This document shows positions 2,513 to 5,463 of a stretch of 5,669 nucleotides of DNA, in pieces. The notes under the pieces are model-generated. The model was not told where the DNA came from and searched no databases. It saw only the letters and a program-made list of their open reading frames with translations. Within the stretch, counting starts at the first letter, position 1, and each line of letters begins with the position of its first letter. Made by a program: the position numbers and the translations under genes. This stretch comes from Candidatus Woesearchaeota archaeon (GTDB lineage Archaea; Nanobdellota; Nanobdellia; Nanobdellales; Nanobdellaceae), in assembly GCA_964468425.1 (NCBI GenBank), contig CAYXSZ010000091.1, positions 1 through 5,669 of the forward strand. Direction: 5' to 3'.

Positions 2513-3016
2513 TTAAGTTATATTCGTTTTTCGCAAAACACTACTTACAGCTCGTCTAACTTTGTTATAAACATCCCACCAATCATCGAGCCAAATGTAG
2601 CTCGGAACCAAGTGAAGAAACTTTCTGTGAACAACGGAAATTACATTGCAATTTTCTTTCAGGATTTTCTCGACAAGTTCTTTGAACTTATCTGAGTAGA
2701 ACTCCATCGGACCGATCTCGTCAAGGACCAAGATTTTATCTTTTCGAAAATCTTTTAAAAACCTCTCAGAGAACCTGTCCAAAACGTCTTTCCGAACAAA
2801 GTATTTTCCGACTCTATAAGGAGTTCTCAGCTCTTCGTGAGCTAAAATCTCGTTTTCTCCCCATGTTGAAACAATCCTGAAACCAGATCTTTTTTTGTTT
2901 TCTTTAATCTCTTCAACCCAAAATCCGAAAAAGTTGTCTAGCCCAAACTCGCTTATTAATTTTTTAATTATGGTAGTTTTTCCCATTCGCGGCATGCCCG
3001 ATATGAAGATCTTCAT
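2513..3016 (-). CDS. THEP1-type nucleoside-triphosphatase (NTPase_1 family P-loop NTPase)
   Basis: 167 aa. Walker A is GMPRMGKT (residues 7-14) and Walker B is ILVLDEIGPME. The family-typical blocks are present in the same order as the Aquifex/Methanocaldococcus THEP1 proteins: GFWVEEI, KRSGFRIV, RVGKYFV, KFKELVEKIL. ATG start. Confidence 0.9.
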   Translation of the reverse strand: MKIFISGMPRMGKTTIIKKLISEFGLDNFFGFWVEEIKENKKRSGFRIVSTWGENEILAHEELRTPYRVGKYFVRKDVLDRFSERFLKDFRKDKILVLDEIGPMEFYSDKFKELVEKILKENCNVISVVHRKFLHLVPSYIWLDDWWDVYNKVRRAVSSVLRKTNIT

Positions 3017-3480: not shown

Positions 3481-4299
3481 ATGATCTACGTTCGAGTCAC
3501 GGATCTCAACGACTACTTGTTTTGTCCCCGGAAGGTTTATTTAAAGAGAGTTCTTGGTTTGAAGGAAGAAAGAGGCTTCGAAGCGATCTTTGGAAGCCTG
3601 ATTCACGAGATATTCGATAGACTTAACGAATGCGAAGAAGAGATTGTTTATCAAATCGACGATGATTACCCCTTCGATTACATCCTCAACCTCTATGAAG
3701 ATACAGCCATTTCGATTGCGAATGAGGTGATAAACAATTTCTCGGAAGAGATCAAGGAACTTCAAGTAGATCGAGATTACTTGCTCCTCAAGATCAAAAA
3801 GCACATTAGTGAGGAACTTTGGGAGCGTGCTAAAAATGTTTACGACGCCATCCAACGCTACAATGAGTATGGATTATTATTGTGGGATAAACTCGAACCC
3901 AAGATATATTCGGAGCTCGAACTTTTATCAGACACTCTAAAAATGGTTGGGAGAATTGATAGAGCCGAATTCTACTCTGAAAGGATAGTACCAGTTGAAA
4001 TCAAATCTGGAAGGTTTTCCAAGAGTCATTTGCTGCAACTTCACGCCTACGCGCTTCTCTTGAAGCAAAACTATCCAAAGTATCACATAGACTGGGGAGT
4101 TATATACTACACTAGTTCCAAGCGTAAGAAGGAGGTAAAATTCTCTAACAAGCTCTACGACAAAGTAATATCGCTTCGCGACGAGATTTTAAAGATCATA
4201 GAATCCGAAACGGACCCAGGTCCTTGCTCGAATTTCAACAAATGTAAAAAATGCGCTCTTCGGGAGTACTGCAAGAAGTTAAATACTTCAAAAAACTAA
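3481..4299 (+). CDS. Cas4/DUF83-family PD-(D/E)xK nuclease with a 4-Cys Fe-S cluster site; stand-alone, with no cas neighbours in the window
   Basis: 272 aa. The N-terminal VTDLNDYLFCPRKVYL carries C15. The remaining motifs are GSLIHE (H42), GRID (D160), EIK (E173/K175), QLHAY (Q186/Y190), and the C-terminal CKKCALREYC (C255-x2-C258-x5-C264) with an extra C249. This is the full Cas4 motif set in canonical order. Confidence 0.85.
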   Translation: MIYVRVTDLNDYLFCPRKVYLKRVLGLKEERGFEAIFGSLIHEIFDRLNECEEEIVYQIDDDYPFDYILNLYEDTAISIANEVINNFSEEIKELQVDRDYLLLKIKKHISEELWERAKNVYDAIQRYNEYGLLLWDKLEPKIYSELELLSDTLKMVGRIDRAEFYSERIVPVEIKSGRFSKSHLLQLHAYALLLKQNYPKYHIDWGVIYYTSSKRKKEVKFSNKLYDKVISLRDEILKIIESETDPGPCSNFNKCKKCALREYCKKLNTSKN

Positions 4300-4306
4300 G
4301 AACTTT

Positions 4307-4675
4307 ATGGAGGTTGAAGGAAGAGTGGAAGCTGTAAGCTACAAGAACAAGGGAATCAAGGTCAACGGAAGATGGTACAATGTTCCAGAAGACATGTTGA
4401 AACAGATTCAAAAGAATCATCGAGTAAAGCTCTTCATAGATGACTTTGGAAATGTCCTCGAGGTGGAAGTTCTGGGTTACGAAGAGCAAATCGACAAGGA
4501 TCTCAAAATCGAAGCCTTGAGAGCGTCGATAGAAATTTTAAAGCTAAACTTTCAGTTTGGACATCCCTACGATTTAGTTCCAGCTTCAGAGCTAAAAAAT
4601 TTCGAGAAGCAAGTCGATACTTCATTAAAACTTCTTGAAAAAACGTACAAACGGGTACTTAAATTGATAAAATGA
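4307..4675 (+). CDS. Hypothetical protein; the N-terminal ~57 aa look like a small beta-barrel (OB/SH3-like) and the C-terminal half is helical
   Basis: 122-aa ORF with an ATG 7 nt after the Cas4-like stop. Its TGA overlaps the next ATG (ATGA at 4672-4675). The N-terminal pattern VEGRVEAVSYKNKGIKVNGRWYNVPEDM...HRVKLFIDDFGNVLEVEVL alternates short beta-like segments, as in small OB-fold nucleic-acid binders. I recognise no family; the fold call is inference. Confidence 0.7.
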   Translation: MEVEGRVEAVSYKNKGIKVNGRWYNVPEDMLKQIQKNHRVKLFIDDFGNVLEVEVLGYEEQIDKDLKIEALRASIEILKLNFQFGHPYDLVPASELKNFEKQVDTSLKLLEKTYKRVLKLIK

Positions 4676-5463
4676 AAATAGAACTTGATGTTCGCTTGTC
4701 TCCCTTCGAAAATGCCGCGAAGTACTACGAAAAGGCTAAAAAGCTCAAACAAAAGTTGGAGAGTCTAAAGCTCCAAATTGAGGAGACCAAGAAAAAGTTA
4801 GAAAATGTAAATCTAGAAATAGAGAAAGAAAGAAAAAAACTTGAGAAAAAGAGAAGGGTAAAATGGTATGAAAAGTTTAGATGGTTTTTTACCTCAAATA
4901 ACTTTTTATTGGTTGCCGGAAAAGACGCTAGCTCGAATGAAGTCTTAATTAGAAAGTACCTTGAAAAAAACGATTTAGTCTTTCACGCAGATATAAAGGG
5001 TTCTCCTTTTGGAATTCTCAAAAATGGGAAAGATGCTAACGAGGTAGACATAAAAGAGGCAGCTCAATTCGTAGCTAGTTATTCAAGGGCGTGGAAACAA
5101 AAGCTAGGAGCGATCGAAGTTTATTACATATATCCCGACCAAGTTTCCAAAAGAGCTCCAGCGGGAGAGTACTTACCGAGAGGATCTTTTATGATTTACG
5201 GAGAGAAAAATTATGTGACAATGGAGCTAAAAGTTGCTATTGGGGTAGATCAAGAAGGAAACGTAATCCCAGGAGTTCCTTCGTCCGTAGAACGAAAATC
5301 TAAGAAATATGTTATCTTAATTCCAGGGGATATCAGACCAAGCGAAATAGCCAAGGAGATTTCAAAATTTCTCGAAGCGGATTTAGAAGATATTCAAAGG
5401 TTCGTTCCTGGAGAAGCCCGGATTATTTCAAAGATCGATAAGCTTATAAATGCAAAGTTATGA
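4672..5463 (+). CDS. NFACT-family protein (RqcH/Rqc2/FbpA family), C-terminal half only: coiled-coil helix + NFACT-R (DUF814) + NFACT-C
   Basis: 263 aa. IELDVRLSPFENAAKYYEKAKKLK matches the conserved LD..LS..ENA..YF.KYKK segment at the start of the second coiled-coil helix of full-length family members. KWYEKFRWFFTSNNFLLVAGKDASSNEVLIRKYLEKNDLVFHADIKGSPFGILK is the NFACT-R/DUF814 core. APAGEYLPRGSFMIYGEKNYV...AIGV...IPGD is the archaeal/eukaryotic NFACT-C region. An in-frame TAA at 4660-4662 prevents any upstream extension. Confidence 0.9.
   Translation: MKIELDVRLSPFENAAKYYEKAKKLKQKLESLKLQIEETKKKLENVNLEIEKERKKLEKKRRVKWYEKFRWFFTSNNFLLVAGKDASSNEVLIRKYLEKNDLVFHADIKGSPFGILKNGKDANEVDIKEAAQFVASYSRAWKQKLGAIEVYYIYPDQVSKRAPAGEYLPRGSFMIYGEKNYVTMELKVAIGVDQEGNVIPGVPSSVERKSKKYVILIPGDIRPSEIAKEISKFLEADLEDIQRFVPGEARIISKIDKLINAKL

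Follow-up and report, generated by a model that had tools for sequence, protein, structure and literature searches.

A short NFACT gene in an archaeal contig is the C-terminal half of a split gene known from Nanoarchaeota and probably encodes one of two chains of RqcH

The stretch of DNA analysed here (5,669 nucleotides; hereafter the window) is an entire contig, C91, of a 475-kb archaeal assembly that comprises 96 contigs and is approximately 70% complete. On its reverse strand, three tandem membrane-protein genes (293-2043; 206, 175 and 199 aa) gave no Pfam match and share similar hydrophobic N-terminal segments, an appearance like that of paralogues. Two adjacent genes for single-cluster 4Fe-4S ferredoxins (82 and 71 aa; longest ORFs overlapping) occupy 2078-2508, also on the reverse strand, and this pair adjoins a THEP1-type NTPase gene at 2513-3016. 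The features that concern the gene of main interest are listed below.

3481-4299, forward strand: Cas4-like PD-(D/E)XK nuclease, 272 aa (Pfam Cas_Cas4, 1e-21; TIGR00372, 2.2e-30)
4307-4675, forward strand: 122-aa gene of no recognisable family, with a stop/start overlap with the next gene as ATGA (ORF list)
4660-4662, forward strand: in-frame TAA, 9 nt 5' of the ATG, closing the reading frame (read from the sequence)
4672-5463, forward strand: C-terminal half of a split RqcH/NFACT gene, 263 aa, orthologue of NEQ506 (ORF list)
4675-4698, forward strand: aa 2-9 (KIELDVRL), last beta-strand of the M domain, directly past the break (alignment with eight fused relatives)
4702-4854, forward strand: aa 11-61, second coiled-coil helix (single 51-residue helix in the AF2 model; Pfam NFACT_N positions 369-415)
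4873-5202, forward strand: aa 68-177, NFACT-R (DUF814) (Pfam PF05670 NFACT-R_1, E 3.9e-36; the genome search gives the same coordinates)
5209-5457, forward strand: aa ~180-262, beta-rich C-terminal domain, also present in fused archaeal RqcH (full-length alignment to fused relatives; confident fold; RqcH_arch match to position 644)

The 263-aa ORF lies in the interior of C91, with other genes on either side. Its ATG (4672-4674) places the N-terminus at the segment '..IELD..S..ENA..YY.KAKK'. The original prediction had described a start in this conserved part of the second helix, an in-frame stop at 4660-4662 and an unrelated upstream gene in another frame, and all of this was confirmed from the sequence; the upstream ORF is read in a different frame and overlaps the gene by 4 nt (TGA/ATG). 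It had also described a short ORF devoid of NFACT-N, HhH and the first coiled-coil helix, a description confirmed by the Pfam domain positions. The NFACT_N model (456 positions) was matched by aa 1-47 alone, at positions 369-415, and the ORF therefore lacks the N-terminal ~370 profile positions that hold these parts. The protein matched positions 381-644 of the 645 of NCBIfam RqcH_arch (324.8 bits) and residues 461-645 of NEMF (E 1.3e-34), and it keeps every residue invariant in the NFACT-R alignment, in which it is itself the reference row. The AF2 model (pLDDT 90.2) consists of a short unstructured N-terminus, the helix of residues 11-61, NFACT-R and the C-terminal domain; the best matches by fold were NEMF, Rqc2, RqcH and the FBPS C-terminal structure. 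In this model of the half by itself, residues 2-9 are coil; in the alignment with eight fused relatives they fall on the strand next after the M-domain hairpin.

As one option of the original prediction had it, the missing N-terminal half was found to be encoded elsewhere in the same genome, on contig C95.

G000:C95:7752-8780, reverse strand: N-terminal half of RqcH, 342 aa, with NFACT-N, HhH, first coiled-coil helix and M-domain hairpin (tblastn with relatives' N-halves)

The proposed search for this half succeeded by one route and failed by the other. A Pfam NFACT_N profile search of the genome (~70% complete) recovered no N-half, yielding only the helix of the C-half and a sub-threshold match, whereas tblastn with relatives' N-halves found the gene on C95. 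The sub-threshold match was considered as an N-half and rejected, being topoisomerase VI subunit B. The profile search missed the N-half because its sequence is too divergent for the model; searched alone, the N-half has no Pfam match, and phmmer against PDB sequences gave no meaningful match. With the N-half of a relative (genome G002) as query, the C95 gene was recovered at E 8.7e-63, with 38% identity across 332 residues (full length), and with NEQ438 as query at E 1.7e-14. The protein matched positions 4-320 of RqcH_arch (122.2 bits), and a profile built from eight N-halves matched NEMF residues 5-357 (E 2.3e-11). Its AF2 model (pLDDT 89.6) shows a helix at 234-291 followed by a hairpin at 316-327, and the best fold matches were NEMF, Rqc2, RqcH and crystal structures of the FbpA N-domain. 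E92-R93 is retained at the position of RqcH D97/R98, the role of which has been described (PMC8373112), as is the ELF..GN motif; the N-halves of close relatives have D-K in place of E/D-R.

The N-half gene is interior to C95, where it sits between ABCE1 and a DHH/DHHA1 gene, with a tRNA-Leu gene nearby. ABCE1/RLI, the ribosome-splitting ATPase (L037:1493-3265, forward), is convergent with the N-half gene (L037:3253-4281, reverse), with 13 nt shared at their 3' ends. This convergent pairing was also observed in all four other loci of the family that were checked (L027-L030).

The original prediction had called for the exact break point to be sought by alignment to full-length homologues. It was mapped by MAFFT alignment of seven N-halves, four C-halves and eight fused relatives, and the two halves were found to be complementary, tiling the full-length relatives with zero overlap and zero gap. 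N-halves finish on the second strand of a hairpin ('..KIIVDI', '..YFEIDL'), and C-halves open on the next strand ('KIELD..', 'RIRLP..'), after which come '..S..ENA..YY.KAKK' and the long helix. In RqcH, the M domain is a small, beta-hairpin-containing domain between both coiled-coil helices, and it touches uL11 in Bacillus subtilis (Takada et al., PMC8373112). The alignment thus places the break inside the predicted M domain, between two beta-strands of this small domain at the tip of the coiled coil. According to the AF2 models and the alignment, each half holds one long helix (residues 234-291 of the N-half and 11-61 of the C-half) and part of the M domain. The equivalog cut-off of the archaeal RqcH family (400 bits, NF041120) is missed by either half, with 324.8 bits for the C-half and 122.2 bits for the N-half against 571.9 bits for a fused relative. 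Two features that define membership in archaeal RqcH were found across the pair, NFACT-R in the C-half and NFACT-N plus HhH with D/E-R in the C95 gene.

The two-gene state is not peculiar to this genome. The original prediction had asked whether relatives carry the same split; a short C-half was found in all 21 genomes of the order, together with a separate N-half of 335-367 aa in 21 of 21; four of these genomes are single contigs (G002, G005, G007 and G020) and show the same two genes. In a search of 40 relatives, C-half frames from the same family and order were 253-290 aa long except for one of 362 aa (G018), many genomes of this family and order also had a separate ORF of ~340 aa at a distant locus that matched NFACT_N positions ~60-326, and most of the remaining genomes of the class had fused proteins of 560-750 aa. 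No full-length NFACT was found in the genome under study (~70% complete) by the Pfam NFACT_N search, and the closed genomes of the family have just the two halves. The original prediction had also considered that short forms might be the norm in this clade alongside a separate full-length NFACT. Short forms were indeed found to be the norm, but beside an N-half and never beside a full-length protein. Where both halves lie on one contig (G002, G007, G010, G012 and G020, N. equitans included), they are 62-72 kb apart, across the origin in G002; the gene order of N. equitans is otherwise thought to be scrambled.

A likeness to the split genes of Nanoarchaeum equitans had been suggested and proved to be close, the halves being orthologues of a published pair. 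The halves of N. equitans Kin4-M were identified by exact look-up as NEQ438 (332 aa) and NEQ506 (255 aa). The C-half matched the NEQ506 locus by tblastn at 9.5e-40 and aligns with it end to end, the two N-termini sharing an alignment column. NEQ438 and NEQ506 are listed as a split 'predicted RNA-binding protein' in Table 1 of Podar et al. (2013, PMC3655853), with the same split site in Nst1 (Nst176 and Nst251). In the supplement to the N. equitans proteome, both are assigned to arCOG01695 and both have non-zero spectral counts (PMC3149612). The NFACT paper of Burroughs and Aravind makes no mention of the split (PMC4075521), and the N. equitans RNA-seq paper has nothing on NEQ438/506. Overall, the gene in the window adds one more orthologue to a split gene that was already on record for Nanoarchaeota, and the split itself is not new.

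The spread of the split was surveyed in a class sample of 301 genomes, 233 of which had an NFACT-R match; frame lengths were taken from the best 150 rows. Among these best 150 rows, frames of 316 aa or less occurred in at least 52 genomes outside the order, most of which also have a separate N-half ORF of ~340-450 aa elsewhere. In 46 of 46 extracted split C-halves, homology begins at profile position 1-3, mostly no more than ~30 residues after the preceding stop, indicating that the break site is identical everywhere. By this measure, some 50 more genomes of the class, outside the order, have the same break site. For all other archaea the gene had been stated to be unbroken (Podar et al., 2013, PMC3655853), and the class-wide spread of the split exceeds that statement. 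A C-half tree of 66 rows grouped families f1 and f2 in one clade (support 97) and 31 other split forms in a second (support 92), and requires at least three changes on well-supported branches; a single clade of all split forms was not rejected by the AU test (p 0.31). In the same class sample, few or no NFACT-R matches were found in families f6, f13, f23, f35, f41 and f45, even at a rated completeness of 96-100% (in f6 one genome out of nine had a match, in f13 and f23 no genome did), and RqcH may have been lost in these families. Family f18 has a divergent form of ~277 aa with NFACT-R at the C-terminal end (L081).

A different arrangement was observed in five genomes of another order (families f37, f60, f62 and f83), in which N-half, cysS (the gene for cysteinyl-tRNA synthetase) and C-half lie on one strand with overlapping ends.

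L039:1110-4242 (G091): N-half, cysS and C-half
L038:1463-5226 (G272): N-half, cysS and C-half, with a hydrolase gene added
L040:1317-5656 (G179): N-half, cysS and C-half
L087 (G321) and L101 (G303): N-half, cysS and C-half

In G179, cysS is in two pieces (240 and 251 aa) with a 270-aa phage endonuclease I-like gene between them (L040:2460-4745). In two f75 genomes, cysS adjoins the C-half only, and in two f26 genomes the N-half lies 1-2 kb upstream of cysS. No cysS was found beside NFACT in the fused-form genomes examined or near either half in G002 or G020 (Nanoarchaeales), nor was the gene found in the incomplete (~70%) genome under study. The arrangement may preserve a trace of the way in which the gene was split. 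The pattern fits an insertion of cysS into an NFACT gene; a later event within that order could also account for it. It is conceivable, though on balance doubtful, that the two-piece RqcH is an old DPANN trait that originated when cysS landed at the M-domain loop, the Nanoarchaeales inheriting the split and then scattering the halves, rather than a by-product of genome collapse specific to Nanoarchaeota.

Both genes are intact, they complement each other at a single site resolved to the residue, no genome of the order lacks either of them, and they are orthologous to NEQ438/NEQ506. The reading we consider highly probable (approximately 0.88) is that the ORF in the window and the C95 gene together encode archaeal RqcH (NFACT/NEMF/Rqc2) as two separate genes. 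The N-half and C-half would be translated separately and would then reassemble post-translationally, presumably as the long helices (~58 and 51 residues) pair antiparallel and the strands of both halves together make up the small M-domain sheet. Like its single-chain counterpart in bacteria and eukaryotes, the restored two-chain RqcH would bind obstructed large ribosomal subunits and recruit tRNA for C-terminal tailing. Experimental work on archaeal RqcH is not known to us, and this rescue function is therefore transferred from the bacterial and eukaryotic homologues. Since the N-half is divergent, as seen in its want of a Pfam match and in the D-K of close relatives, some change of function in the split RqcH may have occurred.

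Both genes could instead be real but no longer parts of one factor, the C-half being a ribosome- or RNA-binding NFACT-R protein, possibly acting with the Cas4-like nuclease, and the N-half a separate tRNA-binding protein. Such a divorce would suit the fast evolution of the N-half and the fact that the halves are unlinked, each with a conserved neighbour of its own (Cas4-like gene upstream of the C-half, ABCE1 convergent to the N-half), and eukaryotes do have solo NFACT-R proteins (CCDC25/Jlp2; PMC4075521), with a fold match here. However, the two occur together in each of the 21 genomes of the order, both have retained complementary M-domain strands and long helices whose lengths match, one break site is used across ~70 genomes, as predicted for a site that permits reassembly, and a conserved neighbour is weak evidence for a functional link in tiny, closely related genomes. 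We therefore hold a separation of the two functions to be improbable. An artefact of assembly or a decaying pseudogene fragment might be suspected given a fragmented assembly of 96 contigs, roughly 70% complete, but this is hardly credible: each half is interior to its contig with genes on both flanks, single-contig G002, G005, G007 and G020 have the same two genes, the invariant residues of the family are kept, and proteomics detects both N. equitans proteins.

The original prediction had offered, as its other option, a truncated NFACT-R/C protein that stands alone and leaves its missing functions to the two upstream genes. Translational coupling of the 122-aa gene to the C-half through ATGA speaks for this, as does the constancy of the Cas4-like gene as a neighbour. 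The latter adjoins the C-half in 11 of 11 relatives' loci checked (f1, f2); in G019 and every family member checked it lies directly 5' of the C-half, often overlapping. N. equitans and G033 lack it at this place. The Cas4-like nuclease is solo, with no other cas genes within the window. A homologue of the 122-aa gene was found only in the same genus and G019 among the loci checked, and in most of the family this gene is missing and the Cas4-like gene abuts the C-half directly. The 122-aa protein gave no Pfam or NCBIfam match, and neither upstream protein resembles NFACT-N or HhH by these searches. The upstream genes were accordingly rejected as substitutes for the N-half, the 122-aa protein being without a family and missing from most relatives and an intact N-half being present on C95. 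The Cas4-like/C-half pair is a real conserved neighbourhood, without sign that the Cas4-like gene replaces the N-half. Since the N-half is retained throughout the order, this genome included, the stand-alone option was not borne out and is very unlikely.

Under the preferred reading of a two-chain RqcH, the gene in the window would be annotated as encoding the C-terminal subunit of a split RqcH; its N-terminal counterpart would be the product of the divergent 342-aa gene on C95. A natural two-chain RqcH, cut in the uL11-contacting M domain, would serve as a tool for finding which parts of the factor need covalent linkage. That one break site is widespread in DPANN, and that cysS still separates the halves in some lineages, is relevant to how reduced genomes acquire and keep split genes.

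How does this pair compare with known systems? The closest are NEQ438/NEQ506 and Nst176/Nst251 (COG1293/arCOG01695), which belong to the same gene family and likewise consist of two unlinked genes cut at the same site. The N. equitans pair comes from a different species and genus of the same order, and the N-halves of the window's family differ from it in an extra tail of 8-14 residues past the hairpin. In the older papers, NEQ438/NEQ506 appear only as an "RNA-binding protein", with no link to RqcH or ribosome quality control and no position of the break in the fold. Single-chain archaeal RqcH (NF041120), bacterial RqcH and Rqc2/NEMF have the same domain order as the joined halves, namely NFACT-N, HhH, coiled coil with M domain, and NFACT-R, and their D/E-R motif is also found in the N-half of the split form. 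The difference is that two polypeptides are encoded here, cut within the M domain that in B. subtilis contacts uL11 (PMC8373112). The solo NFACT-R proteins CCDC25/Jlp2 (PMC4075521) are likewise short, with NFACT-R beside a coiled-coil helix, and CCDC25 structures were among the fold matches of the C-half. In CCDC25, however, the coiled coil comes after NFACT-R and a full-length NEMF is co-present, whereas the C-half in the window has its helix before NFACT-R and is accompanied by no full-length copy. Unlike proteins of the CCDC25/Jlp2 type, it corresponds, in collinear order, to the back half of RqcH.
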